Assembly (NCBI GenBank): GCA_947631135.1
Contig: CANRKE010000001.1
Location: forward strand, 8,475-72,474
DNA length: 64,000 nt
DNA from: an uncultured Bacilli bacterium
GTDB lineage: Bacteria > Bacillota_I > Bacilli_A > RF39 > UBA660
Direction: 5' to 3'
Shown here: positions 21,834-56,415 of the stretch, in pieces
Layout: every line of letters begins with the position of its first letter
Position numbering within the stretch: position 1 is the stretch's first letter
Position numbers and translations under genes: made by a program
The notes under the pieces: generated by a model
What the model was told of the DNA's origin: nothing
The model's database searches: none
Seen by the model: the letters and a program-made list of their open reading frames with translations, nothing else

Positions 21834-22415
21834 TTATTTACATTTTTTTATCAAATATAGTTCTTTATTTTGAGATGAAATTGAATCATGCAACATTTTA
21901 TATTCATCTCTACTTGCACTATTTACTGCATTTAATAACATTTTATAAAATTCTAAAGTTGTTTTATATTTTTTACTTCTTATATCTATACATGTTCCTA
22001 TATATTTATCTTGATTGAATGTATGTAAGTTAACTAAACTACTTGATATATCACGAGCTATTATTACATCAAAATCATTTATTGATGGAGTGTTTTCTTT
22101 TTTATTAATCAAATATTCAGGTATATAAATATTATTACTATTTAAATACCCATAAGAACCAATAATTCCATATTTAGATAGTTCATTATTATTAACTTTT
22201 TCTGATAATAAAAATTGATTATATTTCTTTAAGTATAATGACATAGATGTTTGAACACCTTGTACTAATTCTAATATTTTATTATAATTTTCTGGTTTAA
22301 ATCCATATAATTTTATATATTCTAAAAAAATCATAGTATTATATTCTTCGTTATTTAAATCTTTATTATTCATAAAATCAAAACCTCCTAATTTATAGCA
22401 TTTAAAAAGTAGCAA
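21834..22415 (-). CDS. Hypothetical protein
   Basis: Intact ORF; no recognisable motifs; start ambiguous (possibly MNNKDL). Confidence 0.4.
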   Translation of the reverse strand: MLLFKCYKLGGFDFMNNKDLNNEEYNTMIFLEYIKLYGFKPENYNKILELVQGVQTSMSLYLKKYNQFLLSEKVNNNELSKYGIIGSYGYLNSNNIYIPEYLINKKENTPSINDFDVIIARDISSSLVNLHTFNQDKYIGTCIDIRSKKYKTTLEFYKMLLNAVNSASRDEYKMLHDSISSQNKELYLIKKCK

Positions 22416-25033: not shown

Positions 25034-25822
25034 TCATCTGAATGTTATTATTCCTTGATCTAGTAATATATACGAAATAAATGAAAGAAGTGTATAGTTA
25101 TTATTTTCTTTATAAATTTTTTCTTCTTTTTCAAATACATCTATATTTATATTTTTTATATCATCTATATTAAAATTATCAATTCCTAAATTTTTTAATT
25201 GCTTAATCATTTCTAATGTAGCTCTTTGAATTTTATATTTATCTATTAAATTAATATTATAATTATTGGATTTGACATAATTTTTTATATTTTCATTAAC
25301 AATTTTTTTATCTTTTTCAAAACATGATATAGTATAAGCTTCAGTACATGGGTAGCTCAATAATAATCCATTTTCAAATTCATCATTACAATATGAATTA
25401 TTTAATTTTTTTAATAATTTTCTTACTATATTTACTTTATTTGATTTATTATCTCTATCACAAATATAATACACAGGAATATTTTTGATATCTAATGAAT
25501 ATTTTTCATAAAGCATTTTATATAATTCATTTCTATATTTATCATCATCTATAATTGAACCAATGTTTGAATTTTTAGTATTTATTATTATAACCCTCTG
25601 ATTATTATTATCTTTTATAACAAATTCATTATATTCTTTAAATTCATTTTGATTTCTACTTTTAGTAACTAATTTATAATGTAGTAATTTTCTAAATATT
25701 TGATTGAATAAAGAAAATTCATAACTAGCCCCCTCAACAACTAAAACAATTGTATTAATTTTCTTCTTTATGTTAATCTTTAAAGATTTTATTGTATCTT
25801 GGAATTCCATCAAATACTCCAT
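25034..25822 (-). CDS. TOPRIM-like (RloB/AbiLii/AriB-like) protein, partner of the upstream ATPase
   Basis: N-terminal IVLVVEGASYE (conserved Toprim Glu) and downstream YYICDRDNK (DxD). Overlaps the ATPase gene by ~50 nt (operon). Confidence 0.5.
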   Translation of the reverse strand: MEYLMEFQDTIKSLKINIKKKINTIVLVVEGASYEFSLFNQIFRKLLHYKLVTKSRNQNEFKEYNEFVIKDNNNQRVIIINTKNSNIGSIIDDDKYRNELYKMLYEKYSLDIKNIPVYYICDRDNKSNKVNIVRKLLKKLNNSYCNDEFENGLLLSYPCTEAYTISCFEKDKKIVNENIKNYVKSNNYNINLIDKYKIQRATLEMIKQLKNLGIDNFNIDDIKNINIDVFEKEEKIYKENNNYTLLSFISYILLDQGIITFR

Positions 25823-26924
25823 TTAAATACATTTTTTGAGTATTTTGTGCTTCTCTAGGCATTTCATCTGAAAATCTTTTTAGTGTACTACCTTTTTTTC
25901 CTTTAAAAGATACAGAGTATACTTGATCAGGTCTAATTATTGTATTATTTAATATGTTAGTTGAATGAGATGTAAAAAATATTTGAGAATTATTTGAATA
26001 ATGATTAAAATATTTAATAAGACACTCTTCTAGTTCGTTATGAAAACCACTACTAAACTCATCTAGAATAATCATACAATCTTTTTTTATTGCATGAAGA
26101 AATATAGGTAAAAGATTAATTAGGGTATTATTTCCAATGGATTCAAAAACTTCTGGTATATAAATATCAGTACCTTCCTTTAAGAAAGAAATAAATTTAT
26201 TATCCTTTGATTGAGCATTAAAAGATTCATTTTTATTTGGTGTTTTTGAATCATATGCAATCTTTTGTTTATAATTTATTTTATCAAAAAAATTATTTAT
26301 TTCGTCAGTACCTATTTCTTCTAAATATTCGTGTGCTAAAAGTTTATTATTATTGTAATTAAAAATTTGTCTTGTATAGCAATTTATGTATATAGAATTT
26401 TTTAAAAATTCAAACCATTTAAGTAATAATTTATCATCATAAAAATGTGTATCAAAATATATTCTTCTTAAGAACAACAATTTATCCGATAAATTATCAA
26501 AATTCTTTTTTTCATCATAATTAAACTCTGCACTATTTCCAACTCTATTAATTATTGTTTTATTATTAAATGTTAATTTTTCTTTTGTAATTTTATTAAT
26601 TGTAAATTCTATTTCATAATCTATATTTGCATCATCAACAATGAAAAAATATTTTAAACTATAATTTTCTTTTTTTGTATAAAAACTTTTATTATACATA
26701 AAATTTATCTCATTATTACTAAATAATAGATCTAAAAGAAAAGTAATTGCTTTTAAAATTTGAGTTTTCCCTGATGCATTTTCTCCTACAAAAAGAGCTC
26801 CTTTTAAAATTCTATTTGCACCTACATTTTCTTTTTCTAGAAATTTATAATTTGTTGCTGAAAAATCAATTTCTGTTTCATTAATGAAAGTTGTAAAATT
26901 ATTTAAAATTATTTTTTCTAACAT
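25773..26924 (-). CDS. AAA_21/ABC-type ATPase (OLD-family-like; AbiLi/AriA-like)
   Basis: Walker A GENASGKTQILKAI; Walker B MIILDEFSSGFH; H-loop-like FFTSHS. Confidence 0.65.
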   Translation of the reverse strand: MLEKIILNNFTTFINETEIDFSATNYKFLEKENVGANRILKGALFVGENASGKTQILKAITFLLDLLFSNNEINFMYNKSFYTKKENYSLKYFFIVDDANIDYEIEFTINKITKEKLTFNNKTIINRVGNSAEFNYDEKKNFDNLSDKLLFLRRIYFDTHFYDDKLLLKWFEFLKNSIYINCYTRQIFNYNNNKLLAHEYLEEIGTDEINNFFDKINYKQKIAYDSKTPNKNESFNAQSKDNKFISFLKEGTDIYIPEVFESIGNNTLINLLPIFLHAIKKDCMIILDEFSSGFHNELEECLIKYFNHYSNNSQIFFTSHSTNILNNTIIRPDQVYSVSFKGKKGSTLKRFSDEMPREAQNTQKMYLNGVFDGIPRYNKIFKD

Positions 26925-34746: not shown

Positions 34747-36006
34747 TCAATTTTTTAATGTACCAATAGATACGACATAAACACCATCATCTCTTTTATA
34801 TGAATAATTTGCTCCTGTTAATACCATTAAAAATGATGGTTCTCCACATTTTTTAGTATCTACTCTTTCTTTAAATTTAATAAGATTTTTTGCAGCTTCA
34901 TCAATATAACCTGCACCTAACTTTATTTCAATTGCTCCCCATTTGCCATTTTCTAACCTTAAAATAGCATCTACTTCAAAGTCTTTTTCATCTCTATAAA
35001 ATGATATTTCTCCACCATAACTTTGAGAATATATTTTTAAATCTCTAATACATAATGATTCAAATAAAAATCCAAAAGTCTTTAAATCATTAATTAAGTC
35101 GCTTGGACTAATATTAAGAATTGCAGTAGCTATAGATGGGTCAACAAAATATTTTTTAGGTTTAGTTCTCATTGCATATTTACTTCTTAAATTTAAATTA
35201 GTTGCTCTTACATTTTCTATTACAAATAATTTTTCTAATGTGTTCATATAATCATTTAATGTTGGTCTAGATATTTTACTATCAAACATATTATTAACAT
35301 CATCACTAATTGTAGTATTAGATACTTGAGTTGATATATTTCGCGCTAATGATCTTAATAAACTTTGCATTTTTTCTGGATTTCTTTCTATACCATCTAT
35401 ATATTTTATATCTTCATGAATTAATGATTTAACGTATTCTTTTGAAAATCTATATTTTGAATCACTCTTTACTTCTATTGAAGCAGGCCAGCCTCCTCTT
35501 ACAATTGCGCTAGCAATATCTTCTAATTTTAATTTTGATACTCCACTAATATCTTTTCCCATAAAAATATCTTCAAGTGATATTTCGCCAGTAGATTCAC
35601 CTGATTCATATAAACTCATAGTTCTCATAAGCACTCTAGAAATTCTCCCTGTTCCAGTATGCATTGTTTCACCCTCACTTGGCTTTGCAGATCCTGTTAA
35701 AATATATTGACCTTTTAATCTTGAATGATCTACATCAGTTCTAATAGCATCCCAAACAACTGGATACATTTGCCATTCATCAAACAATCTAGGTTTATCT
35801 CCATTTAAAAATAATGATGGTTTAGTATTTTTTATTTCTTCATATTCAGCTTTTCTGTCAGGATTTTGAAATTCAATTACACTCTTTGAATGAAAAGCAC
35901 CAGTTGTTGATTTACCACACCATTTGCACCCTTCTATTAATACTGCACCCATTACTTCCATAAGTTCATTTATTTCTTTATCTATAACTCTTGGAATATA
36001 TTTCAT
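34747..36006 (-). CDS. AAA+ superfamily ATPase (COG1373/DUF4143-type)
   Basis: Walker A GCKWCGKST and Walker B-like RLFDEWQ; start set at MKYIPRV. Paralog of 18260-19540. Confidence 0.6.
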   Translation of the reverse strand: MKYIPRVIDKEINELMEVMGAVLIEGCKWCGKSTTGAFHSKSVIEFQNPDRKAEYEEIKNTKPSLFLNGDKPRLFDEWQMYPVVWDAIRTDVDHSRLKGQYILTGSAKPSEGETMHTGTGRISRVLMRTMSLYESGESTGEISLEDIFMGKDISGVSKLKLEDIASAIVRGGWPASIEVKSDSKYRFSKEYVKSLIHEDIKYIDGIERNPEKMQSLLRSLARNISTQVSNTTISDDVNNMFDSKISRPTLNDYMNTLEKLFVIENVRATNLNLRSKYAMRTKPKKYFVDPSIATAILNISPSDLINDLKTFGFLFESLCIRDLKIYSQSYGGEISFYRDEKDFEVDAILRLENGKWGAIEIKLGAGYIDEAAKNLIKFKERVDTKKCGEPSFLMVLTGANYSYKRDDGVYVVSIGTLKN

Positions 36007-36232
36007 ATAACATTCTCCTCTCAAAATAATTATAACACATTTTACAAAAAAAGCAAATATCATTTTACATTTTAAGCAATTTTTGTTTTACAAAAAAAGC
36101 AAGTTATAAATATAGATTTTAAAATACTTATTATCTATATTTATAATTTATTTTTAAATTTTAAAATTTTAATATATTACTTATAATTTTTTATTTTTAT
36201 GAAAATACTAACATTAGAAATAAGGTGATATA

Positions 36233-38214: not shown

Positions 38215-39417
38215 TTATTTATCTTTTAATATTAATTCATTTAATTTATTAATTTGACTATTTAATAAAGTACATAGTTTATTAATTTTTTTATCACTTA
38301 TTTTAGTTAAATATTGATATTGATGTAATAAATTATCAAACCAATCTATTATACCATCTAACTTACTTACATCTATTCTTTTCAAATCTTTTACTACTTT
38401 TATTATTTCATCAAAAGGTTTTATTTCATAAAACATTCTTCCATTACCTGAAATATGTATTTCTTCATCATCATAATATTCAATACTTAAACTTTGTCCA
38501 TTATCAAAAATTGGAGCTATATCAATCCATTTTAAAGTATTAACATCTCTAATAATACCAAAATTATTTAAATGTCTATCTTCGTTCATAATAATAAAAT
38601 CTAAAATATACATATTCTCTACTTTTTCGCGAGCATCTTTAATATTCTGTTCTTCTAACTTTTTAATATATTCTTCATAATAATTTATATTATCATATCT
38701 TTTCATATCATTTATTATTTGATAACATGTAACAAATTCTGTATCTTTAGTTATAAAACAAGGACATTTAGATACAACTTTTTCTTTATATATATCTATT
38801 GTATATTCTACGTGATCAAATCCTAATCTTCTACATATTTCACTAGCTAATACTTCATTAAATGGTTGTAGAATTTCATTTTTATAACCACCTTTCAACA
38901 AATACCTTGTATCTTTATCAATAATCCAAGCTTTTTTTAACATTCCATCTGTAGTGTTATTAGGAGTTTTTAAAGAAGATGCTTTTGTTATTATCCCACT
39001 ATTAGTTGATAAAGATGCTTCCATAAATTCTGCATAATCAAAATCATGATCAAAAAAATTAATATCATTATAGGAAATGTTACTATCATAAGGTTTTAAC
39101 CAATATTGATCAGATAAAGATAGACCAAAAGCTTTATCTAAAAGTTCATAAGGGGCTGTTATATTTAATCTATGTAATAATAAATCTAATTTATCACGCC
39201 ATGTTGGGATTCCTCTTCCTTTAAACCATTCACTTAAATTAGTTATAAAATTTATATCATTAATATTTTTTTCTATATAAAAACTTTTTAAAATATATGG
39301 TGCATAATTAATATTTTTTATTTCATATATTTTATCAAAAAACTTTGAAGTTTCATTATATTCGGCAATTAAAATTTCTACATTTTTGTTCATAAGTATA
39401 CATTTCATAAAAAACAC
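38215..39417 (-). CDS. HipA-like serine/threonine kinase family protein
   Basis: MNEDRHLNNFGII...WIDIAPIFDNGQSL parallels the HipA catalytic loop (D-x-HxKNFS) and the downstream L-APAYDL motif. Confidence 0.55.
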   Translation of the reverse strand: MFFMKCILMNKNVEILIAEYNETSKFFDKIYEIKNINYAPYILKSFYIEKNINDINFITNLSEWFKGRGIPTWRDKLDLLLHRLNITAPYELLDKAFGLSLSDQYWLKPYDSNISYNDINFFDHDFDYAEFMEASLSTNSGIITKASSLKTPNNTTDGMLKKAWIIDKDTRYLLKGGYKNEILQPFNEVLASEICRRLGFDHVEYTIDIYKEKVVSKCPCFITKDTEFVTCYQIINDMKRYDNINYYEEYIKKLEEQNIKDAREKVENMYILDFIIMNEDRHLNNFGIIRDVNTLKWIDIAPIFDNGQSLSIEYYDDEEIHISGNGRMFYEIKPFDEIIKVVKDLKRIDVSKLDGIIDWFDNLLHQYQYLTKISDKKINKLCTLLNSQINKLNELILKDK

Positions 39418-39552: not shown

Positions 39553-41238
39553 TTATCTTTTAAAATTAATAACTATTTGATAAAGATTACCTAAATCTTG
39601 TTCATTTATTTCAATTCCATAACCATTTCCTTGTAAATTCATTATTGTATTTCTTATAACAGCAACTGCTCCTGTAATATCTTGTTGCATTATCATTGAT
39701 TGTGATGATGGATTATCATTTACTTGAGGTTCTTGCATTTGTTGAGGTTGTTGTTGATTATACATGTTCATATCTGCATTGTTTTGTTGCATATTTTGTT
39801 GAGGTTGCATATACATTTGTTGATTGTTCATCATATTATTTTGATTGATATTTTGATCATAATTTGGTTGTTGATAATTATTCATAGGATTATTTTGCAT
39901 CATATTATTATCCATTTGATTATTCATAGGGTTTTGTTGAACTGTTTGATTCATATTATTCATAACAGGTTGTTGCATTTGTTGTTGTTCCATATTATTG
40001 CCTTGTTGCATTCCATAATTATTCATACCATTATTTGGCATATTTTGTTGCATTTGTTGAGGTTGCATATTACCCATATTTTGTGCTTGCATATTTTGTT
40101 GCTGCATATCATTCATATTATTATCTTGCATTTGTGGGTTTTCATCAGGTAATGAACTTTCTGTAAAATTACTTATATCTTGATTATTTTGTTCACTTTC
40201 TGCTTCTTGTGCTTCTTCGGGAGCAGGTATATTTGGCATTTGCATATCATTATTTTGTTCCATATTTTGGTTATTCATATCTACTTGATTGTTAGTATTC
40301 ATTTGTTGATCTTGCACAAATTGTGTTGGAGTTGGAGAAAATGAAGAATCAAAATTCATATTAGCTGCTTGATTATCATAGTTAAAAAATCTTGATGGTT
40401 CTTGTACTTGTGCATTATTAACTACTTGTTCATTTATATATGCTCCATTTTGTTGACTACTATTTATATTTATTTGGTCGTAATCTGGTATATTTGGTAT
40501 ACCACTATTAGCAGTAAAATTATCTATTACTGGACTATTATTTTCATTCATATTATCACCCTTTTTATTATCATCATCATCTGAAAAATCTAATATTTCT
40601 TCAGTTTGTTCCAAATTACTATTATTATCAATTAAATCTTTTATATATTTATCAGTTTCTCTTACTGTCATTCTTTTTTCTATGATTTTATTTAATGTAT
40701 CATTTTGCATATCATGATCTTTTAATCTCAATAAACTTCTTGCATGTCTTTCACTAATTTTATTATCTAAAACAGCTTGTTGTGCTTCATTTGATAGATT
40801 TAATAATCTAAGTTTATTTGATATTGTAGATTGTCCCTTACCTATTTTTTTAGCAAGTTCTTCTTGTTTGATTTGTCCTAATCCTAATATTTGTTGGTAA
40901 GACTTTGCTTCTTCTATAGCAGTTAAATCTCTTCTTTGTACATTTTCAATCAAAGCAATTTCTGCTGATGAAGAATCATCTAATTCCATAACAATTGCAG
41001 GAACGGACATCAAACCTATCATACATGCTGCTTTATATCTCCTTTCACCTGCAATTATTTCAAACTTGTCTCCCAACTTTCTTAAAACTAATGGTTGTAT
41101 TATACCATATTGTCTAATCGATTCGGCAAGCTCATTTAATAATTCTGGGTCAAAGTTTTTTCTAGGTTGAAATCTGTTCGGTATTATGTTGTTAACTGAA
41201 ACATTTTCTATTTTCATTTTACTATAGTCAATGTTCAT
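39553..41238 (-). CDS. ParB/Spo0J/Noc-family protein with a long Q/N/M-rich low-complexity insert
   Basis: ParB N-terminal domain (IIPNRFQPRKNFDPELLNELAESIRQYGIIQPLVLRK...IIAGERRYKAA) and HTH, then ~280 aa dominated by Q, N and M, then a short C-terminal domain. Follows rsmG, as noc/spo0J do in Firmicutes. Confidence 0.75.
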   Translation of the reverse strand: MNIDYSKMKIENVSVNNIIPNRFQPRKNFDPELLNELAESIRQYGIIQPLVLRKLGDKFEIIAGERRYKAACMIGLMSVPAIVMELDDSSSAEIALIENVQRRDLTAIEEAKSYQQILGLGQIKQEELAKKIGKGQSTISNKLRLLNLSNEAQQAVLDNKISERHARSLLRLKDHDMQNDTLNKIIEKRMTVRETDKYIKDLIDNNSNLEQTEEILDFSDDDDNKKGDNMNENNSPVIDNFTANSGIPNIPDYDQININSSQQNGAYINEQVVNNAQVQEPSRFFNYDNQAANMNFDSSFSPTPTQFVQDQQMNTNNQVDMNNQNMEQNNDMQMPNIPAPEEAQEAESEQNNQDISNFTESSLPDENPQMQDNNMNDMQQQNMQAQNMGNMQPQQMQQNMPNNGMNNYGMQQGNNMEQQQMQQPVMNNMNQTVQQNPMNNQMDNNMMQNNPMNNYQQPNYDQNINQNNMMNNQQMYMQPQQNMQQNNADMNMYNQQQPQQMQEPQVNDNPSSQSMIMQQDITGAVAVIRNTIMNLQGNGYGIEINEQDLGNLYQIVINFKR

Positions 41239-47180: not shown

Positions 47181-47303
47181 TTACTTACAAAGTCTTTTAC
47201 GTCCTTTTCTTCTTCTACTAGATAAAATTTTAGATTCAGCACGTTTCATAAAACCATGTTTCTTTTTCATTTTTCTATTGTTTGGTTGATAAGTTCTTTT
47301 CAT
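47181..47303 (-). CDS. rpmH: 50S ribosomal protein L34
   Basis: Hand-translated MKRTYQPNNRKMKKKHGFMKRAESKILSSRRRKGRKRLCK; not in the ORF track (<60 aa). Confidence 0.85.
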   Translation of the reverse strand: MKRTYQPNNRKMKKKHGFMKRAESKILSSRRRKGRKRLCK

Positions 47304-47454
47304 TTTAACACCTCCAAGCATATATTCTATTTTTTCTTTCGCATATATAATTATAAAGAAATATATTTTTTTGTCAATATTTTTTATAAACTTTTCTTAA
47401 GTCAATAATAAAAATTTTATAATTTTATTACATTTTTTTTAATTTATTATTAAA

Positions 47455-48378
47455 CTAATAATATATAGTTATTGTATGATGAGTTTTACTTTTTTTATTT
47501 TTCTTTCCCATACACCATATTAAATTATCTAATTCAACAGAATTTATAATTATATTTTTTTCTTTTAGTTTTTCTTTTATTATTTCAATTACATATAACA
47601 TGTTAGCTCTAATTTCTATTTCCATTTCACTATCATGTAATAATTCTACTTCATTATCGACAATATCTTCTAATGCATCATTGTATACTAAAATACCATA
47701 ATCTCTGAATGTTCTTGGTATTCCATAATCAGCACACCCACTTAAGTTATTTACATTTTTTAAATTATTATTAATTGTTTCTGATAAATAATATAAATCA
47801 TTTGTAAGTAAAATTGCACGTTTATTAAAGTGTATTATTTTGTTTTTATAAAAAGACTTATCGTCAAAACTTTTAAAGTTATTTGTAATATAATTTAATA
47901 AATCTATATCTTTTTTTATAGAAAATATTTCATTATAAAAATTCTTATTATCATAAATATAATTTATTGTTTCAATAAAATTATTATATCTCTCATTTAA
48001 TAATGGAATTTTTCCTTCAACAGAATTAAAAATATTTTCAAATTGTTTTTTATTAATTGAATGTAAATATTCTATATTTAAAAATTTTGAATTACTTTCT
48101 ACTTTTTTTATTATTGAATAAAATAAAGCATTTGATCCACTCATAATTTCATGATTATATTCTATTTTCCATTTTGGTTTTTTCCAAAAGCAAAAATTCA
48201 TAGATTCTATTATAAAAGCTAGTAATATCCATTCTTTCTCACTTAATTTAATATTTAAATCTTTTGACCAATGTTTATAATTAATTTCTTTTAAGTTATT
48301 TATAAAGTCATTAATCTTATTATTATTGATTTTAACATATTTACTATTTTTTACTACATATTCAAATTCATCTTTCAT
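47455..48378 (-). CDS. Queuosine-salvage family protein (DUF2419/Qng1-like nucleotide N-glycosylase)
   Basis: CADYGIPRTFRDYGILVYN...SEMEIEIRANMLYVIE parallels the Qng1 signature ADYRVPQLLRALGALRYS...EEQEIRAASILAVE. N-terminal MNFCFWKK parallels LNFSFWSD. Confidence 0.6.
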   Translation of the reverse strand: MKDEFEYVVKNSKYVKINNNKINDFINNLKEINYKHWSKDLNIKLSEKEWILLAFIIESMNFCFWKKPKWKIEYNHEIMSGSNALFYSIIKKVESNSKFLNIEYLHSINKKQFENIFNSVEGKIPLLNERYNNFIETINYIYDNKNFYNEIFSIKKDIDLLNYITNNFKSFDDKSFYKNKIIHFNKRAILLTNDLYYLSETINNNLKNVNNLSGCADYGIPRTFRDYGILVYNDALEDIVDNEVELLHDSEMEIEIRANMLYVIEIIKEKLKEKNIIINSVELDNLIWCMGKKNKKSKTHHTITIYY

Positions 48379-48381
48379 ATA

Positions 48382-48936
48382 CTATTCCTTTCTTAATAAT
48401 AATTTTTTACTTTTTATAATATTGTTTATTTGTAACATTGTATTGTCAATAGAATTATTATTATCAACAATATAAATTTTATCATATTTTTTATATAATT
48501 GTAAATAAACATTGTTTTCATAATTATAAAAATCTTCATCAAAAATAAAATTATTTCTTTTTTGTAATCTTTCTTTAATTTTATATTTGCTTACTTTTAA
48601 ATATATAGTGTGTGGATGAAATATATTTATAGATAATATTTCATCGGCTGTTTCTTGTATTGTTTTTTTTAGTTGATAATTTAACCTAATTATAGTTGTA
48701 TAAAAGAATCTATCAAATATATAATTACCATTATTACATTCATATATATTGGCTTCATGTCCTATTATATAAATTTTTTTTTGTAACTCTGCATTACAAG
48801 TTCTGGCAAATTCTATATATTTTCTATACCAATCAGGGATAGATGTTCTAGGAATAATATTATATTCTTTTGATATATGTTTAATTAATGTTGATTTGCC
48901 AGATCCATTACTTCCTTCTAAAACTAATATTGACAT
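48382..48936 (-). CDS. P-loop nucleoside/nucleotide kinase (deoxynucleoside kinase / thymidylate kinase-like)
   Basis: Walker A VLEGSNGSGKSTL and a DRF(F)Y motif resembling the TMPK/dNK DR(Y/H) motif; 184 aa. Confidence 0.6.
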   Translation of the reverse strand: MSILVLEGSNGSGKSTLIKHISKEYNIIPRTSIPDWYRKYIEFARTCNAELQKKIYIIGHEANIYECNNGNYIFDRFFYTTIIRLNYQLKKTIQETADEILSINIFHPHTIYLKVSKYKIKERLQKRNNFIFDEDFYNYENNVYLQLYKKYDKIYIVDNNNSIDNTMLQINNIIKSKKLLLRKE

Positions 48937-50945
48937 TATATTTTCCTCATTACTAATACATGTTTTTGTGAATTATTTCTTGTTTTAATTTTAATATCAT
49001 GAGAATTTCCTATATCATAATCCCAAAAATTCCTATTTATGATTTCTAGTATATCATTTAATTCAAAAAACATTTGATTAAAATCATATTCTTTAATTAT
49101 TTGATTTTTATAATACAACTTATAAACTGTTTGTTCTTTCGCACTTTTAATATCATAATGACGTTGAATAACTAATTTATATTTTTCATCGACATATAAT
49201 TCTTTGTAAAAATTTGTATCCACACTTTCTCTCCATATTTTATTAAAACAGTCAAATACTATTATTCCGTTTTTTCTTAATATTAAATATATTTTATTTA
49301 ACATTTTACTTAATTCTTCTTTATTGCTATAGCAGTTATATAGGCTATATGCATAATCAAAAAGATAATTAAAATTGTGCATCAAAAAATCATCTTTTAT
49401 ATAAATAAAATCTTTTTCATTACCAATAAATTGATAAGATTCATAATCTATACCTACTATGTCATTATATCCTGCCTTTTTTAATTGATTTGCTATTCTT
49501 CCATATCCACACATGATGTCTAGTATTTTACCATTTTTATTTGAAAAGATTTTTGAAAGAAAATCTATTTCTTTTATAGTATAATTTGACATTGCTTTCG
49601 ATGTGTAATTGTGATATGTACCTAATTCATTAAAAGATTTTCTATCTTTGATTATATTAACGTTCATTTTTTCATTATCTAATTGATCAGCAAATAAACT
49701 ATTATTTATATTGTTTTGATTTAATATTATTTTAATTTCTTGCTTTTGAATCATACTTAAGAAATTAGTGCATATTATAATATAATTTTTAAATAATTCA
49801 TAGTTTAATTCATTTATATTTCTTTTTAAATCATTAATAATTGCAATTATTATACTTGTTTTACTGTAGTTTTCTATATTTGGTAAGTATAAATCATTTG
49901 TACCATAAACCACAATTTTATTAAGTATATTTTTTTCATTGTATTTTTGATTATTTGTATTCGATAATAGAATATATCCAAAAAATTTTCCTAATGCATC
50001 AATTAAATATTGTCTATCATATTCATTATTTTGCATTTTTAAAATATATTCTTTAAATATCATACTTTGCTTTTTATTATTGATAAAATTAAATGGATTA
50101 CTTTTGTAGGTAGTATTAAATTCTGTAGAAAGTATGATTGGAAGTTGAGATTTAACTGTTTTTTTTCTGCCATATATGATACCAAATTGATTAAATTCGT
50201 TTATTAGTTTTTCTTTTAAATATGATGGAAAATATATATTATTAGCAAATAAGTTCAAATAATTATTGGAATCTATATTATTTTTTTTAAAAAAATTATG
50301 AATATTAATTATAAATTCTTTCCTAAGTTTATTAAATTCAAGTCTATCATAATTTATATTAAAACCTTTTAATATTGAATCAGCTAATATTCCTAGATAT
50401 ATATTGTCATTTTTTTCAATATGTGAAAAATCTAGATGAATATAATGATCTTTACCATCTTCTGTTATAAACGATGGCGAAATAAAGTTAACTGTAATTC
50501 TTGAATTGTCAGTTCCGTAAGCAAAAAATAAGCTAGTATTTCTATCATGTGATATTTTTTTAATTATTATTTCTTTATTTAATTCACAAATATTTTTAAT
50601 AAGTTTTTTAGATACTAGATTTATAGTGCTTTTTATACTATTATATATACCATTTAGTCTTATAATATCTATTTCCCCAGCAAATAATAATTTTAGATCC
50701 AAGTCAAGATATTTTTTTTCAAAATTAAAGTTAGTTGTTTTTAAAAATTCTATTATTTTTTCTATATCTTTTTGATTTTCATATATAATCATGAAATCAA
50801 AATCTCCAATTTTATTTTTATTATTATACTTTATAGAATCGTAAGCAAATCCTCCACCTGTTACAAATGATGCATTGATATTATTATCTTTTAACAATAA
50901 ATTAATTTCTTTACAAAAATTACTTCCTACATTTCTGTAATTCAT
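48936..50945 (-). CDS. Two-domain protein: N-terminal polymerase-beta-type nucleotidyltransferase-like domain fused to a C-terminal class I SAM-dependent methyltransferase
   Basis: N-terminus VTGGGFAYDSIKYNNKNKIGDFDFMII (hG[GS]-x(n)-DhDh). C-terminus ILDIMCGYGR (motif I), VGIDYES (post-I acidic), LRKNGIIVFD (motif III). Confidence 0.55.
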   Translation of the reverse strand: MNYRNVGSNFCKEINLLLKDNNINASFVTGGGFAYDSIKYNNKNKIGDFDFMIIYENQKDIEKIIEFLKTTNFNFEKKYLDLDLKLLFAGEIDIIRLNGIYNSIKSTINLVSKKLIKNICELNKEIIIKKISHDRNTSLFFAYGTDNSRITVNFISPSFITEDGKDHYIHLDFSHIEKNDNIYLGILADSILKGFNINYDRLEFNKLRKEFIINIHNFFKKNNIDSNNYLNLFANNIYFPSYLKEKLINEFNQFGIIYGRKKTVKSQLPIILSTEFNTTYKSNPFNFINNKKQSMIFKEYILKMQNNEYDRQYLIDALGKFFGYILLSNTNNQKYNEKNILNKIVVYGTNDLYLPNIENYSKTSIIIAIINDLKRNINELNYELFKNYIIICTNFLSMIQKQEIKIILNQNNINNSLFADQLDNEKMNVNIIKDRKSFNELGTYHNYTSKAMSNYTIKEIDFLSKIFSNKNGKILDIMCGYGRIANQLKKAGYNDIVGIDYESYQFIGNEKDFIYIKDDFLMHNFNYLFDYAYSLYNCYSNKEELSKMLNKIYLILRKNGIIVFDCFNKIWRESVDTNFYKELYVDEKYKLVIQRHYDIKSAKEQTVYKLYYKNQIIKEYDFNQMFFELNDILEIINRNFWDYDIGNSHDIKIKTRNNSQKHVLVMRKI

Positions 50946-50958
50946 ATTTTTTCCTCCT

Positions 50959-51798
50959 TTATTTTCTTAAATACATAGTACATACGTTATTTTTTGTCAT
51001 TACTTTACTCCTAGAATACATAGTTTCCATTGGTAAATAAACACCATTTTCTTGTTTTTTAATATAATCGGAAATAATATTATATATGGTGTATAGTTTA
51101 TCATTTCTTTTTTTTATTTCTTTATTGGACCAATTCATTTTCTTATAAAACTCAATATTATTTTTATAAAAATTATAATAATTTTTGTCTTTATTTAAAT
51201 TATCAGAAATATATCCAATAGTATATTTTGAATCATTATAAATATCAGATAAAAATATTATTTCTGTTTCATCAAAATTTTTGGATGCTTTTTCTTTAAA
51301 TTTTTTTTCATGAGTATTCAATTCTTTTTTCCAATTAGGATTTAGGTCATAATTAGTATTTTCTAAAAATATATTAGCTAAAGTTATTTTAAAGTTTACT
51401 GGTATCTTTTCTTGTTGAAATAAATTTTTTATTTCTTTTAGTATATTTAATCGTTTAGAATTATTTTCACCTATATAATCTTTATATCCAGTATTCGTAT
51501 ATCCTGGACAAAAAATTGCATTAAAGTTGATAATAGAATTATTAATTATATAATATATAAAAGATGTTAAATCTTTTTTAGTATTATACTTATAATCAAA
51601 GTAACAATTTAATTTATTAATTATGTTCCATAAATAATTTATGTTGTTTATATCTACATTTATTAATTGTTTTTCAATAGAGGCATCACCGTTTTTTATT
51701 AATCCAGTAATTATAGATTTAATTATTTTTGTGTTTTCAGCAGTATGTACTATATTTAATTTATTAAATATATAATTATAATCAAACATTTTAATCAC
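50959..51798 (-). CDS. Hypothetical protein (279 aa), operon member
   Basis: Intact ORF tightly packed between the flanking genes; no family recognised. Confidence 0.5.
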   Translation of the reverse strand: MIKMFDYNYIFNKLNIVHTAENTKIIKSIITGLIKNGDASIEKQLINVDINNINYLWNIINKLNCYFDYKYNTKKDLTSFIYYIINNSIINFNAIFCPGYTNTGYKDYIGENNSKRLNILKEIKNLFQQEKIPVNFKITLANIFLENTNYDLNPNWKKELNTHEKKFKEKASKNFDETEIIFLSDIYNDSKYTIGYISDNLNKDKNYYNFYKNNIEFYKKMNWSNKEIKKRNDKLYTIYNIISDYIKKQENGVYLPMETMYSRSKVMTKNNVCTMYLRK

Positions 51799-51865
51799 AA
51801 ATTCCTTTCATTTTATTCAAAATATACATAATTATAAAAAGCATTTATTTTTTCAACATAATTTT

Positions 51866-52669
51866 CTACTTTAGTCTTTTATCTAACTTTTTTTCATTAT
51901 TAATGATACCATGTGCATATACATTATGTTCATGAATTGACTCATAATTAATAAGTTCTGCTTCTATTTTATTATTATATTTTTCAGCAACAGCTAAAAG
52001 TAAATCTCTTATTAAATCTTCTGAAAATTTTGGATTTTCATAAGCTAATTCTGTAATATATTTTTCATCTGTTCTTTTAACTGTACTATATACATTAGAA
52101 CTAAATGACTTTTCCATTATATTGATAATTTCTTCTAAATTAATTTTTTCATAATTCTCGTGTAATATTATTGTTGCCTTACATTTTTGATTATGTGCCC
52201 CGTATTTCGATATGTCTTTGGAACAAGGACATAACATTGTTCCTATAATAGAAATTGATAAACTTTTTTTATTAATATCATTTATTTTGGAATTGTTTAT
52301 TTTCAAATTAACAGTAAAATAAGAATTTTTCTTTGAAATTGGTGAAATTCTTTTTAAAATAATATCAAAATCCATAGTTAATGACATATTGTTAGTTTCC
52401 GTTCTTTTTATTGTAGTATTTATAATTTCATTAATATCTTCAAGTGATATAATTTTATCACACAAATAGTCATTTAATACTTCAATAATTCTGCTTAAAT
52501 GTGCTCCACGAGAATTTTTTTCAAGTGAAACGTTACTAGATATATTACAGATTGAATGATACAATTTATTATTTATAGATAGTGTAATAGGTAATTTGTA
52601 ATCACAAATTCCAATATTACTTATAAAAATATTTCTATCATCTTTTTCATTTTGCAAATCTTTAAGCAT
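51866..52669 (-). CDS. GTP cyclohydrolase FolE2/MptA family (GTP cyclohydrolase I type 2)
   Basis: Matches three FolE2 signatures: RGAHLSR (G-x-H-M/L-SR), MLCPCSKDISKYGAHNQK (CPCSKEIS...GAHNQR) and C-terminal ESIHEHNVYA (ESIH-x-H-x-A-x-A). Confidence 0.7.
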   Translation of the reverse strand: MLKDLQNEKDDRNIFISNIGICDYKLPITLSINNKLYHSICNISSNVSLEKNSRGAHLSRIIEVLNDYLCDKIISLEDINEIINTTIKRTETNNMSLTMDFDIILKRISPISKKNSYFTVNLKINNSKINDINKKSLSISIIGTMLCPCSKDISKYGAHNQKCKATIILHENYEKINLEEIINIMEKSFSSNVYSTVKRTDEKYITELAYENPKFSEDLIRDLLLAVAEKYNNKIEAELINYESIHEHNVYAHGIINNEKKLDKRLK

Positions 52670-53519
52670 TTTTTAACACCTCTTCTATTTTTAATATATT
52701 CTCCTTATTTTTTAAAGCATCTATCCATTTTAAACTATTGTTCTCTATATAATCTCTATTTAAAATTTTCTTTTCATATAAATATACATCTTTCAACAAA
52801 TTATATATAATACAATATTTAAATAATAAATGTATATTGTTTTTTTCTTCTTTTTCAAGTTTAATATTATTATTAAAGTAATTTGAAATAAATACTTTTA
52901 TATTATCAATATCATAATTTTTATTTTTTATAAAAAACCACATAATTACTCTTATTATATCAATAAGTCTATTTCCAATATAAACGTTACCAAAATCAAT
53001 TAGAAATATTTTATTATTATTAATTATAATATTTTCCTTTTTTATATCTGAATGAACGATACATTTTGAAAGAGCATCAAGATTTATGTTTTGAATTTCT
53101 TTAAATATTTTATTTATAAAATTTAAATCTTTAGATAAATATTTAGATCTTATTGCTACACTATAATATTGGTTTAATTTGTTTAGTGATTCTTCATTTT
53201 CTTTATGTTTTTTTATTTTTTCATTAAGAGGTATAGAGTGAAGTTTTTTCAATAATAATGCCAAATTTTTAAAAAATGATTTATCAAAAGTATTAGGATT
53301 ATTTCCATATATATATTTTAATATCATTACATTTTTTGAATTAAAAATAAATTTTGAAATTAATTTAGGACTCTCAAAATCATATTTTTTAAGATATTTT
53401 AAAATCTTAATTTCAAAGCTATTATCAATTTCACTCATTCTAATTATATATTTTTGTTTTCTTATTGTAAAAATGTATACATCATTTATGTTATTATTTT
53501 TAATTTTTTCTAAATTCAC
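52662..53519 (-). CDS. Protein-kinase-like fold phosphotransferase (APH/choline kinase/CotS family small-molecule kinase)
   Basis: Brenner motif VHSDIKKEN (HxDxxxxN) and LIDFGN (DFG-like). 8-nt overlap with the downstream FolE2 gene. Confidence 0.6.
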   Translation of the reverse strand: MNLEKIKNNNINDVYIFTIRKQKYIIRMSEIDNSFEIKILKYLKKYDFESPKLISKFIFNSKNVMILKYIYGNNPNTFDKSFFKNLALLLKKLHSIPLNEKIKKHKENEESLNKLNQYYSVAIRSKYLSKDLNFINKIFKEIQNINLDALSKCIVHSDIKKENIIINNNKIFLIDFGNVYIGNRLIDIIRVIMWFFIKNKNYDIDNIKVFISNYFNNNIKLEKEEKNNIHLLFKYCIIYNLLKDVYLYEKKILNRDYIENNSLKWIDALKNKENILKIEEVLKNA

Positions 53520-53575
53520 ATATATTCCCCCTTTTTCTAAAACTTTAGTATATTATTCCAAGAAATCGCTAATTA

Positions 53576-53604
53576 TTCTATTACTTTTACAATTAAATGT
53601 CAAT
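53576..53604 (-). promoter_or_regulatory. Candidate promoter of the six-gene island operon
   Basis: Minus strand TTGACA-17 nt-TAGAAT, ~50 nt upstream of the first gene's AGGGGG RBS. Confidence 0.35.
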
Positions 53605-53708
53605 AGAATACATATTTTTTATAAATTTTTCAGGATAAATTCATGAAATAAATTTATTTGTTATAAATAATTACTAAAAACGTACATAGAAAAACATCTA
53701 TAAAATAT

Positions 53709-53737
53709 TTGCTTTTATGTTACAAATATTGTATAAT
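53709..53737 (+). promoter_or_regulatory. Candidate promoter for the 192-aa gene
   Basis: TTGCTT-17 nt-TATAAT. Confidence 0.35.
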
Positions 53738-53898
53738 AAGTGCTGAAAGGAAAAATTTGTTAGAAAAATAATATTTTAATTAAAAATAAATCGTTCAGTA
53801 AATGATTTATTTAAGATTAGTGTGATGTAATTGATAAAATATAAATTTCATTTTTTAATAATTTTAATATAGTAAAAGTATTAGGAGGTTATAATTTT

Positions 53899-54477
53899 AT
53901 GAAAAAAATAGATTTAGATGAATTCGATGATTCAAATATGTTTGCTAATGATACTATTGAAAATTTAAAAAAAGATTGTAAGAACGGTTTTCAATTATTA
54001 AAAATAATAATCGATGGAAAGCCAAAAAATATTAATCCTCTAACAGAAATACCAGAACCTCAAATGAGATTGTTTGGCTTTTCTGATGCTTTTAATAGTG
54101 TATATTTTGAAACTGAAGAAGAATTAATTGAATGGGCAAAAGAACATAATAGAGATTCTGATAGTATACGCGTAATGGATTATTTAGGAACAGTTGCTGG
54201 TCGTAGTGATGTAATTAGAGTAAAATATCCAGGTGGAAAAGATTTATTATTTACTCATTGTGATGAAGATGGATATGGAATATACAATTATAACAGAAGC
54301 AATTATAGAGGCGAATTTATATGGGAATATAGTTACGGAAGCATTAGTGATATGTACAAAGAATTTAGAGATAGAGGTATTGTGTTTGAAAATGATATCT
54401 ATGCAAAAATTGAAGAAAGTAAAAAAGAATTATTTAAAAAGATTAAAGAAATAAATAAAAAACATTTTAACAAATAA
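53899..54477 (+). CDS. Hypothetical protein (192 aa) adjacent to oriC
   Basis: Intact ORF with GGAGG RBS; no recognisable family. Confidence 0.5.
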   Translation: MKKIDLDEFDDSNMFANDTIENLKKDCKNGFQLLKIIIDGKPKNINPLTEIPEPQMRLFGFSDAFNSVYFETEEELIEWAKEHNRDSDSIRVMDYLGTVAGRSDVIRVKYPGGKDLLFTHCDEDGYGIYNYNRSNYRGEFIWEYSYGSISDMYKEFRDRGIVFENDIYAKIEESKKELFKKIKEINKKHFNK

Positions 54478-54619
54478 TAATTCTTAAATTAATTATAAGA
54501 TGCTTAACTTAAAAAGTATCTTTTTTATTTGATTAATATTTAATTTATAAAATAGTTAATATTACTTTTCCCAGGAAATAAATTTTACTATATGGGGAAA
54601 TAATAATATTTTCCATAAA

Positions 54620-54825
54620 AAATATTTCCCACAGGTATGTGGAAAAAATTGTGGAAAACTAACCCTTATAAAATATGGATAAACTTTAGTTTTCCACAGT
54701 TATCCACAGGCATGTGCAAAAAAAGTTAACAAGTGTGTAAACTTTTTCCACAGGATTGTGCATAACTTATATTTCCCAGTAAAAAATAAGATTTTTTCCT
54801 GTTGAAAACTTTGTGGAAAAAAATT
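54620..54825. promoter_or_regulatory. oriC DnaA-box cluster upstream of dnaA
   Basis: TTATCCACA at 54700-54708. TTTTCCACA variants on either strand at 54638-54646, 54650-54658, 54690-54698, 54744-54752 and 54812-54820. TTTCCCACA at 54625-54633. Confidence 0.7.
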
Positions 54826-54910
54826 TTATTAAATTTGCCAATATATCTTTTTTTTTGTCGATATTTAGTTTAAAATAATTAGTAAGAGATGTAGTAAGGG
54901 AGGTGGGTAT

Positions 54911-56269
54911 ATGAATGTTAATAGTATTTGGAATAATTTTTTGGAGAACATTAAATTACAAATTACAAATCTATCTTATGAAACTTGGTTTAAGAATACT
55001 AAGTTATTAGAAATTAAAGATGGTGTAGCTAAGATAGTTGTTGAAACTTATGTACATAAAAAACATTTACTTGAAAACTATACTGATTTAATAATTGATA
55101 CTTTAAATCAAGTAACTGGTACAAACTTTTATATTGAATTTATATTGGAAGATGAACTAAATAATGAGAATGCAGAAATAGATGTAGATTTAATTGGTGT
55201 ACCTAATAGTAAGAATAGAATAGAATCAAATCTAAATTCCAAATATGATTTTGATTCATTCATTGTTGGTGAAAGTAATAGATTTGCACATGCTGCTGCT
55301 TTATCTGTTGCGGAAAATCCTGGTAAGATGTATAATCCATTATTTATATATGGAAAGAGTGGTTTAGGTAAAACTCATTTAATGCATGCGATTGGAAATT
55401 ATATCGATGCTAATTCTTCAAAAACTGTTTTATATGTTACTAGTGATCAATTTATTAATGATTTTGTTGAAATTAATAAAAAAGATAAAAATGATAATAA
55501 TTATGATTATGTTGAATATTTTAAAAATAAATATAGAAATATAGATGTATTAATTATTGATGATATACAATTTTTAGGAAGTGCAGCTCAAACTCAACAA
55601 GAATTTTTCCACACTTTTAATAAATTGTATGACGATAATAAACAGATTATAATATCATCAGATAGATCACCAGACGATTTAAAAATTCTAGAAGATAGAT
55701 TAAGAACAAGATTTGGTTGGGGATTATCAGTTAATATTTTTCCACCTGATTTTGAACTAAGAAAAAATATATTAGTTAAAAAAATATCTGCTCAGGGAGT
55801 TAATAGTAAAATACCAAATGACGTTATTGAATATATTGCGAATAATTGTCAATCAGATGTTAGACAATTAGAGGGAGCTATAACAAGATTATTTGCATAT
55901 GCAACTATGATGAACGGAAGTGATATAACTTTAGAACTTGCAATAGAAGCTTTAAAAGATCATCTTCATAAATCAATAGGAGAAAAAAATAGTGTTAATA
56001 GAATACAAAGAATAGTATCTGATTATTATCATGTTACTGTTGAAGATTTAAAAAGTAAGAAAAGAAGTACACAAATTGCTTTTCCAAGACAAATAGCAAT
56101 GTATTTAACAAGAGTTCTTACTAATGAGTCTTTTCCTAAAATAGGAATTGAGTTTGGTGGAAGAGATCATTCAACAGTTATGCACTCAATAGATAAAATA
56201 GAAAAAGAAATAAATAAAAATAGACAATTAAAAAATATTGTTGATAAACTAAAAGAACAAGCAAGATAA
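54911..56269 (+). CDS. dnaA: Chromosomal replication initiator protein DnaA
   Basis: AAA+ Walker A GKSGLGKTHL; C-terminal DNA-binding domain (GGRDHSTVMHS). Confidence 0.95.
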   Translation: MNVNSIWNNFLENIKLQITNLSYETWFKNTKLLEIKDGVAKIVVETYVHKKHLLENYTDLIIDTLNQVTGTNFYIEFILEDELNNENAEIDVDLIGVPNSKNRIESNLNSKYDFDSFIVGESNRFAHAAALSVAENPGKMYNPLFIYGKSGLGKTHLMHAIGNYIDANSSKTVLYVTSDQFINDFVEINKKDKNDNNYDYVEYFKNKYRNIDVLIIDDIQFLGSAAQTQQEFFHTFNKLYDDNKQIIISSDRSPDDLKILEDRLRTRFGWGLSVNIFPPDFELRKNILVKKISAQGVNSKIPNDVIEYIANNCQSDVRQLEGAITRLFAYATMMNGSDITLELAIEALKDHLHKSIGEKNSVNRIQRIVSDYYHVTVEDLKSKKRSTQIAFPRQIAMYLTRVLTNESFPKIGIEFGGRDHSTVMHSIDKIEKEINKNRQLKNIVDKLKEQAR

Positions 56270-56278
56270 AAACATATT

Positions 56279-56415
56279 TGTGGAAAAACTAAACTTGTCC
56301 ACATAATTATCCACAACTAAAATTTTTGTTTTTTTCCTAATATATAAGAAAAAAATACAGTTTTCCACAAGTTTCCACAGTAATAATAACAATAATAATA
56401 AATATAATTATATTC
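56279..56415. promoter_or_regulatory. oriC part 2: DnaA boxes plus AT-rich DNA-unwinding element between dnaA and dnaN
   Basis: Boxes TGTGGAAAA (56279-56287), TTGTCCACA (56295-56303), TTATCCACA (56307-56315), TTTTCCACA (56361-56369), GTTTCCACA (56371-56379). Then TAATAATAACAATAATAATAAATATAATTATATT. Confidence 0.7.

Follow-up and report, generated by a model that had tools for sequence, protein, structure and literature searches.

A FolE2-like GTP cyclohydrolase in a conserved gene cluster of gut Bacilli, and its probable role in a dedicated GTP-derived pathway

Does a FolE2-type GTP cyclohydrolase that shares its operon with a kinase supply folate, or does it serve a pathway of its own? The question is raised by a 64,000-nucleotide stretch of contig CANRKE010000001.1 from an uncultured Bacilli bacterium (the whole of it referred to here as the window), in which an original prediction had placed a FolE2 gene, coupled to a kinase gene, at the head of an operon, and had assigned its product to a dedicated pathway rather than to folate supply. 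Our analysis supports this assignment: the cluster is found in 17 non-redundant loci, its FolE2-like protein (FolE2L) belongs to a separate clade, and no Zur box precedes the operon. We consider it quite probable, with good confidence, that the operon serves a dedicated and so far undescribed pathway starting from GTP; most likely, it turns GTP into a modified guanine- or pterin-type compound.

Six co-directional genes occupy the minus strand at 53519..47455, with successive gaps of -8, 76, 13, -1 and 3 nt (Table 1). The kinase and FolE2L reading frames overlap by 8 nt (ATGCTTAA), an overlap that had been predicted with the two genes in the reverse order: it is the kinase that lies upstream, and its stop that overlaps the start of FolE2L, rather than the FolE2 stop overlapping the kinase start. 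The junction reads GAGGTGTTAAAAAATGCTTAAAG, in which the kinase ends with TAA and the FolE2L ATG, preceded by a GAGGTG ribosome-binding site, falls 8 nt before the end of that stop codon. The genes for the fourth and fifth proteins have one base in common, and for the third, the unannotated protein U279, we favor the ATG at 51789 (276 residues) over the GTG at 51798 that opens the longest reading frame (279 residues). The two coupled genes do head a six-gene operon, as proposed; all six lie behind the sole strong promoter-like site, TTGACA-17-TAGAAT, 5' of the kinase, and no terminator-like hairpin was found within the operon. The site is a plausible promoter candidate, called as a consensus match of a kind that is equally frequent in shuffled sequence of this AT-rich DNA.

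Loci with related genes were collected from gene neighborhoods and by scanning 185,579 species genomes with a U279 profile, and protein families were mapped over 17 non-redundant loci with flanks of about 10 kb. FolE2L is present in all 17 and U279 in 15; a nucleotidyltransferase-like domain (NTD) and/or a methyltransferase was found in 11, Qng1-like and CYTH proteins in nine each, a protein resembling GTP cyclohydrolase II (GCHII-like) in eight, and the kinase and the P-loop protein in seven each. Three architectures can be distinguished. Variant A (the window, L001, L003, L006, L007, L010 and L020) has the order kinase, FolE2L, U279, NTD-methyltransferase, P-loop kinase and then the Qng1-like gene; all six stand in this order in L001, L006, L007, L010 and others, and five of the six in L003, where a Nudix gene takes the place of the Qng1-like gene, and in L020, where no Qng1-like gene was found within the locus. 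A CYTH gene stands ahead of the kinase in L010 (Clostridium sp. CAG:417). Variant B (L013-L018, L021-L023) consists of an optional stand-alone methyltransferase, FolE2L, U279, a 510-residue GCHII-like protein and a 210-residue CYTH protein, with or without a Qng1-like gene, and variant C (L025, L027, L036-L039) of FolE2L, a divergent NDK-like protein, a stand-alone NTD homolog, a 380-residue protein of unknown family (U380) and a Nudix protein.

The kinase is encoded in every variant-A locus and always overlaps the start of FolE2L (by 4-23 nt); seven non-redundant loci, with proteins only 50-74% identical, share both this overlap and the complete gene order, which is more than chance. The hosts are uncultured gut Bacilli, metagenome-assembled genomes of "Tenericutes" and Erysipelotrichaceae, Candidatus Aphodocola, Bacterium D16-56 and Fusibacter sp. 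JL216-2. The flanks vary, with rpoC-rpsL-fusA-tuf in L022, rplU-rpmA in L003, purF in L001, and rpmH and dnaA in the window; since the flanking genes differ between loci, the unit has moved in the course of evolution, with function keeping its genes together. A ComB-like 2-phosphosulfolactate phosphatase flanks the cluster at L001:15135-15833, and an Ldh_2 dehydrogenase with a PEP-mutase-like gene does so at L025:3964-5903. For one member of the clade 148 contigs were found, for another 332; a metagenome scan with the NTD returned close variant-A copies only, and the contig index holds no record of the exact window FolE2L sequence. Literature searches yielded no published description of this gene combination.

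The same map shifts attention away from the kinase. The original prediction had taken it as the coupled partner of FolE2, but it occurs in seven of the 17 loci, whereas U279 directly follows FolE2L in 15; going by gene order, it is U279 rather than the kinase that stays with FolE2L throughout variants A and B. Members of the FolE2L clade appear always to lie within one of the three related gene sets, almost always with U279 next to them. The system ends at P0088 (L024:4351-8762), a FolE2 with 41% identity to the window protein that stands in a different cluster, together with PTPS, two radical-SAM enzymes, AMP-binding enzymes, carrier proteins and BtrH_N domains; this is probably a separate, secondary-metabolite use of FolE2. 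We set aside an apparent natural kinase-FolE2 fusion, P0072, in which kinase residues 1-253 are joined to FolE2L residues 79-262: it comes from a 2.3-kb JGI contig, is annotated as FolE2 plus APH, and is probably a deletion or an assembly chimera.

Is FolE2L itself a working cyclohydrolase? The predicted FolE2 identity was upheld by a full-length match to Pfam PF02649 (GCHY-1/FolE2; 219.6 bits against a cut-off of 25, E = 7e-65, residues 2-252 of 267), and the protein aligns end to end with the structures 3D2O and 2R5R and over its full length with N. gonorrhoeae FolE2. In B. pseudomallei FolE2 the metal ligands are Cys154, His166 and Glu208, and Glu250 and His253 are catalytic (PMC11573665); these residues are matched in the window protein by C147, H159, E202, E243 and H246, each conserved in at least 90% of the clade, and H248 is likewise conserved. 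FolE2L is on this evidence predicted to be a catalytically intact member of the FolE2 family.

Full-length homology (37-42% identity), the metal ligands and the catalytic Glu/His pair are shared with GTP cyclohydrolase IB (FolE2, PF02649; 3D2O, 2R5R, 8G6C), but FolE2L differs from it in several respects. Its score against the NCBIfam FolE2 equivalog NF010200 (192.4 bits) is under the cut-off of 215. Homologs at 40-74% identity are all unnamed metagenome proteins, and named canonical FolE2 proteins begin at about 36-42%. A crude neighbor-joining tree of 128 sequences, calculated without support values, placed variant-A and variant-B FolE2L proteins in one clade and canonical FolE2, including the gonococcal enzyme, in another. 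Six fixed substitutions separate the two clades (T58A, M60L, F63I, L196V, V215S and A250V in N. gonorrhoeae numbering), all within or beside the GxHxSR, FxED and ExxHxH motifs; only about half of the FolE2L clade retains N160 and the second Cys of the CPC motif. Further differences are the U279-type cluster, the lack of a Zur box and the lack of folate or queuosine genes nearby. MptA, the GTP cyclohydrolase IV of methanopterin synthesis, offers a precedent for a FolE2-family enzyme devoted to one cofactor pathway and not to folate; FolE2L is, however, nearer to FolE2, reaching 134.8 bits with the MptA equivalog TIGR00294 (cut-off 220), and is accompanied by no MptB or other methanopterin gene.

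The gene might instead encode a plain zinc-independent FolE2 that supplies folate or queuosine and stands beside unrelated genes by chance; the intact active site agrees with this account, as does the automatic annotation of relatives as "GTP cyclohydrolase I FolE2." We nevertheless disfavor it and regard it as very improbable, given the conserved synteny and overlapping frames in distant species, which are not coincidence, the position of the clade apart from canonical FolE2, the sub-cut-off equivalog score and the result of the Zur search. A Zur box, which would have spoken for this account, was sought as TCGTAATNATTACGA with up to three mismatches: there was none upstream of the operon (53519), and matches across the window were at the level of chance. 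The partner genes, compared with Pfam and NCBIfam, include no folate-pathway, zinc-sparing or queuosine-biosynthesis paralogs, and we could not identify any fol or queDEC genes among the window open reading frames (ORFs) scanned or the locus flanks examined. Rfam searches revealed no element at the operon (46-56 kb of the window, permissive E-value threshold), and in 16 related loci no element at the gathering threshold preceded the clusters. Directly downstream of the variant-B cluster of L015, before an unrelated 271-residue gene, is a SAM riboswitch (L015:6358-6441).

The product of the last gene of the operon matches Pfam Q_salvage (PF10343; 155 bits, E = 3.7e-45) and the S. thermophilus Qng1 structures (E = 1e-32). 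We aligned it to S. thermophilus Qng1, interpreted the residues from the structural paper (PMC9881137) and compared nine cluster-linked copies. Like Qng1/QNG1 (DUF2419), the cluster proteins keep the fold family, the nucleophile D231, the helix-hairpin-helix Lys, the ribose-stacking Phe and Tyr, the Asp that recognizes the base face and the C-terminal Tyr carboxylate; conserved positions are N72, F75, K199, D207, D231, Y232, the base-recognizing D298, W302 and the C-terminal Tyr. They differ in the aromatic pocket for the queuine side chain, where Ser and small or polar residues stand instead. The window protein has S for Y93, N for W94, N for W299, K for P46 and N for H53; across the nine copies, Y93 is always Ser, W94 is N, E, V, D, Q or M, and W299 is N, S or G. 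The phosphate ligands have changed as well, K233 being lost (Gly in most copies) and R80 being Lys in six of the nine and Asn or Ser in three. By these residues the cluster-linked proteins are a distinct subfamily, and they probably cleave a guanine-like 5'-nucleotide other than queuosine phosphate.

These substitutions bear directly on a queuosine-related function, in which one of the kinases would phosphorylate salvaged queuosine, the Qng1-like protein would free queuine for tRNA-guanine transglycosylase (TGT) and FolE2L would feed preQ0 synthesis. The idea draws on the Q_salvage match, on a TGT gene some 9 kb upstream in L003 and L005, and on the need of Qng1 for queuosine 5'-phosphate, the product of a kinase yet to be identified (PMC9881137). 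It is made quite unlikely by the replacement, in all nine cluster copies, of the pocket residues for the queuine side chain (Y93, W94, W299, P46 and H53), by the lack of queD, queE, queC, queF or a preQ1 riboswitch in the window operon or the loci examined, and by the distribution of the genes, the Qng1-like gene being missing from eight of the 17 loci and the kinases from ten.

U279 matched nothing in Pfam, NCBIfam or PADLOC, nor by sequence in the PDB; 86 homologs were found among 5.8 billion proteins, with the invariant motifs FCPGY..GYK, FLEN, RNDKL.T.Y and LPME.MY.R. An AlphaFold 2 model (pLDDT 93.5) gave weak matches to PDB structures (TM about 0.46, E = 7e-4), namely the isonitrile synthases IsnA and PvcA, the catalytic domains of TyrRS and TrpRS, and cyclodipeptide synthases. 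The model suggests a class-I-aminoacyl-tRNA-synthetase-like Rossmann fold without a close relative.

In the 669-residue fusion protein, Pfam matches are confined to the C-terminal third and are to generic S-adenosylmethionine (SAM) methyltransferases. The N-terminal domain carries the signature GGG(F/Y)AYDS...GD(F/Y)D(F/Y)M and an invariant D93, which suggests a nucleotidyltransferase of the Pol-beta type; it has no match in Pfam or, by sequence, in the PDB, and a single weak match to ANT(2''). Representatives of the NTD number 38 among 1.8 billion proteins, and two of these (P0287 and P0289) have a C-terminal part with a weak, sub-threshold APH match; stand-alone NTD copies adjoin FolE2L and the NDK-like gene. 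In structure searches with the AlphaFold 2 model of the whole protein (pLDDT 91.6) the methyltransferase domain dominated the matches, so that the NTD fold was not identified. The best of them were the small-molecule N- and C-methyltransferases CypM, CcbJ, TylM1 and GNMT (E = 1e-12 to 1e-8), and DesVI is similar too; structural matches to giant-virus capping enzymes, with root-mean-square deviations of 18-23 Å, were discarded as no evidence. The stand-alone methyltransferases beside FolE2L in L013, L016 and L021 are orthologous to the C-terminus of the fusion (E = 1e-55 to 1e-63).

The product of the first gene is likely a small-molecule kinase. It exceeds the Pfam APH threshold (PF01636; 54 bits, cut-off 23.2, E = 2.5e-14), matches Pkinase over residues 150-178 only (E = 2e-4), and has APH(2'') enzymes as its nearest solved structures (E about 1e-3). 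The motifs noted in the original prediction are present, HSDIKKEN at residue 156 and IDFGN at 174, and agree with the HxDxxxxN catalytic loop and the DFG-type metal-binding motif; the APH match makes the proposed designation "small-molecule kinase" likely, and the DxKxxN and DFG motifs are of the protein-kinase type. The fifth gene encodes a P-loop protein with the Walker A motif GSNGSGKST, marginally over the cut-off of Pfam Thymidylate_kin (30.7 bits against 27) and far under that of the dTMP kinase model TIGR00041 (33.7 bits against 83); a PDB sequence search gave weak matches at the level of the Walker A motif only.

The P-loop protein also weakly matches the PADLOC candidates PDC-M51B and VakA (E about 1e-8), and some loci have a GmrSD, UvrD-like or MmeI-type gene nearby, as might be seen if the cluster were an anti-phage defense or DNA-modification island making a modified nucleotide. 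Such a role seems scarcely credible: FolE2L, U279, the NTD-methyltransferase and the Qng1-like protein have no PADLOC match, and both kinases have only weak, generic kinase or P-loop matches; the U279 and NTD families are absent from 2.9 million viral contigs; the cluster contains no inserting enzyme of the DpdA/TGT type; and its flanks vary by locus and are mostly housekeeping genes.

The accessory proteins of the other variants are predicted to act on nucleotides. In variant B the 210-residue protein, with ExExR at its N-terminus, attains the CYTH threshold of Pfam. Always adjoining this divergent CYTH protein is the GCHII-like family (L013-L018, L021-L023; for example, L023:9656-11209), in which a GTP-cyclohydrolase-II domain is followed by about 300 C-terminal residues. 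It keeps the three zinc cysteines of RibA but has Gln, Glu/Leu and Ala at RibA R94, Y105 and R128 (our own alignment to E. coli numbering), and without these three residues it is unlikely to be a standard GTP cyclohydrolase II. In profile-profile comparisons no homology of the GCHII-like protein to the NTD or to U380 was found, nor any of U279 to U380. The Nudix proteins of the clusters score best with the MutT and RppH models, under the cut-offs.

Nudix proteins of this kind would fit a clean-up or recycling of guanine nucleotides that have been damaged or modified (for example, to the 8-oxo-, formamidopyrimidine- or N7-methyl-guanine form), with the kinases and the Nudix and CYTH proteins setting phosphates, FolE2L and the GCHII-like protein opening the ring and the Qng1-like protein removing the base. 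The Qng1 fold is nearest to that of the 8-oxoguanine glycosylases Ogg1 and AGOG (PMC9881137), the pocket by position 7/8 is now polar, and the cluster is surrounded by housekeeping genes. We consider this unlikely, given that a methyltransferase, a nucleotidyltransferase and three kinds of kinase would be unexpected in a degradative route, that U279 and the NTD are left unexplained, and that the clusters appear biosynthetic, with tight coupling and a fused NTD-methyltransferase.

What, then, might be made from GTP? The families constrain the answer, in that all accessory proteins are predicted to act on nucleotides or phosphates and a methyltransferase is common to the variants. We favor a pathway of ring opening, methylation and base release, to which we give a probability of roughly 0.45, its product and the order of its steps being inferred. 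Attack at C8 and opening of the imidazole ring is the first chemical step in all GTP cyclohydrolases, and FolE2L would carry it out on GTP. U279, as a Rossmann-type enzyme, would process or modify the ring-opened product, perhaps with the GCHII-like zinc enzyme of variant B taking part, and the methyltransferase domain would add a methyl group. The kinase, the NTD and the P-loop kinase would set the phosphate or nucleotide state, a task that may fall to CYTH, Nudix or NDK-like proteins in other species; Nudix or CYTH could trim the triphosphate. Finally, the Qng1-like hydrolase would cut the N-glycosidic bond of a guanine-like 5'-nucleotide other than that of queuosine, giving a free modified base and ribose 5-phosphate.

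Such logic would parallel 8-azaguanine biosynthesis, where the ring is opened by a homolog of GTP cyclohydrolase I and then rebuilt, and the base is released by a monophosphate nucleosidase (PMC7674941). The ptn/8-azg cluster of Streptomyces resembles the present one in pairing a GTP-cyclohydrolase homolog with a nucleoside-monophosphate nucleosidase that releases a guanine analog, the triphosphate being dephosphorylated to the monophosphate between the two steps (PMC7674941). The two differ in that the Streptomyces cyclohydrolase is of the FolE (GCH-I) and not the FolE2 type and the nucleosidase is of another family; nitric oxide synthase and a radical-SAM enzyme are found there and not here, whereas kinases, an NTD, a methyltransferase and U279 are found here and not there. 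A second likeness is to the toxoflavin operon (toxABCDE) and riboflavin-type GTP cyclohydrolase II pathways, which also combine a GTP cyclohydrolase with a small-molecule N-methyltransferase; the GCHII-like protein of variant B adds to it, and ToxA is among the weak matches of the methyltransferase. That similarity is, however, not significant (E = 0.15 or weaker), there are no RibD-, ToxC- or ToxD-like genes, and the GCHII-like protein has lost RibA R94, Y105 and R128.

Several observations weigh against a pathway of ring opening and base release. To our knowledge, all characterized FolE2-family enzymes proceed to an Amadori rearrangement, giving a pterin without an N-glycosidic bond, and the conserved active site of FolE2L shows no apparent sign of halting at the ring-opened stage. 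The absence of the Qng1-like gene from eight of the 17 loci means that it may be peripheral. The predicted kinases and phosphohydrolases oppose each other, and no one linear pathway would seem to employ them all.

The first of these points leads to a pterin route, in which FolE2L would make 7,8-dihydroneopterin triphosphate and the operon would tailor a methylated and possibly phosphorylated or nucleotide-linked pterin, a cofactor or signal; U279 would work on the side chain, CYTH or Nudix would trim the triphosphate, the kinase and NTD would re-activate a hydroxyl, and the Qng1-like protein would represent a side activity. In its catalytic residues FolE2L does not differ from the enzymes that produce dihydroneopterin triphosphate, and CYTH and Nudix enzymes use tri- or diphosphates like that of the FolE2 product. 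An APH-type kinase beside a nucleotidyltransferase, and the rare proteins that join an NTD to a weak APH match, would fit phosphorylation followed by nucleotidylation on a hydroxyl. The ComB-like phosphatase of L001 and the Ldh_2 and PEP-mutase-like genes of L025 belong to families that participate in archaeal coenzyme side-chain synthesis; they may be members of the pathway. Yet the 17 loci encode no PTPS, FolB, FolK, DHPS, sepiapterin reductase or pteridine reductase, and the clade-specific substitutions beside GxHxSR and ExxHxH suggest an altered specificity. A route that keeps the ribose attached is slightly favored because the Qng1-like protein needs an N-ribosyl 5'-phosphate with a guanine-like face, a bond that a pterin lacks; we therefore hold the pterin route, the main rival, to be possible, though on the unlikely side.

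A more specific form of the favored ring-opening pathway would be a new kind of imidazole-ring editing, in which FolE2L removes C8, U279 adds a substituent as an ATP-dependent ligase-like enzyme, the GCHII-like protein recloses the ring in some species, the methyltransferase methylates it and the Qng1 paralog frees a previously unknown guanine-analog base. Taken together these steps are doubtful; were they to hold, abundant uncultured gut Bacilli might use TGT to place the base in tRNA, or might release it, either as an antimetabolite or as a micronutrient. Queuine, a related micronutrient, passes from gut bacteria to the host. Independent of the exact chemistry, FolE2 is automatically annotated as a folate or queuosine enzyme, and the clade suggests that this name hides a separate pathway, widespread among uncultured Bacilli of human and animal guts. 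The operon offers candidates for enzymology in the U279 and NTD families and in a Qng1 paralog with a changed pocket, and its product could be a new GTP-derived metabolite of the gut microbiome. What appears to be new here is a small-molecule pathway initiated by a GTP cyclohydrolase that draws on two unannotated families and two re-tooled members of known families.

Table 1. Genes, domains and promoter-like site of the FolE2L operon (window coordinates).
Feature	Coordinates	Strand	Remarks
Gene 1, APH/protein-kinase-like kinase, 285 aa	52662..53519	-	GTG start, GGGGG ribosome-binding site; Pfam APH
Gene 2, FolE2L (FolE2-like GTP cyclohydrolase), 267 aa	51866..52669	-	Pfam PF02649 GCHY-1/FolE2
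Gene 3, U279, 276 aa	50959..51789	-	unannotated family; likely start ATG at 51789
Gene 4, NTD-methyltransferase fusion, 669 aa	48936..50945	-	two domains
Gene 4, N-terminal domain (NTD), residues 1-440	49626..50945	-	nucleotidyltransferase-like signature
Gene 4, C-terminal domain, residues about 441-669	48936..49625	-	class I SAM methyltransferase; Pfam Methyltransf_25/23/11
Gene 5, dTMP-kinase-like P-loop kinase, 184 aa	48382..48936	-	Walker A; Pfam Thymidylate_kin
Gene 6, Qng1/DUF2419-like hydrolase, 307 aa	47455..48378	-	Pfam Q_salvage
Promoter-like site TTGACA-17-TAGAAT	53575..53603	-	11/12 consensus positions; about 55 nt 5' of kinase start

The window comes from around the replication origin of a spore-forming Firmicute of low GC content and encodes SpoIIR, MurA, a class A penicillin-binding protein, RF1, ArgRS, ParB and RsmG; YidC and RnpA were read from translations, dnaA, dnaN, recF, gyrB and gyrA were assigned by position and translation, and further ORFs have the positions and lengths expected of MnmG, MnmE and Jag, assigned by these two properties only. 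The operon lies between rpmH (47181..47303, minus strand) and a cluster of DnaA boxes upstream of dnaA, and a 192-residue unannotated ORF (53899..54477, plus strand) joins it in the rpmH-dnaA interval (47181-54910). In Firmicutes, rpmH and dnaA are usually adjacent at oriC; this, and a GC content of about 19% in the operon against 22-25% around it, suggests that the operon was inserted next to the origin. The minimum of the cumulative GC skew, at about 54 kb, falls at the operon.

DnaA-box-like sites (TTATCCACA, up to one mismatch) number eight upstream of dnaA (54638-54820) and five between dnaA and dnaN (56239-56369), out of 41 matches in the window against 24 expected by chance; the two clusters look like a bipartite oriC. 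A terminator-like hairpin at 54646..54625 consists of two inverted DnaA-box-like sequences. Elsewhere in the window, the ORFs at 32526-34103 (525 residues), 25034-25822 (262), 21834-22415 (193) and 512-1567 (351) have no Pfam match at E <= 1e-5, and the ParB homolog at 39553-41238 (561 residues) has ParB_N and a helix-turn-helix in its first 200 or so residues, followed by about 360 C-terminal residues that match no family. Two paralogous AAA_14 + DUF4143 ATPase genes (18260-19540 and 34747-36063) have an AAA_21 (AbiEii-type) ATPase (25773..26924) and a HipA-like kinase (38215..39417) near them; these may be defense or toxin-antitoxin genes scattered among the housekeeping genes.

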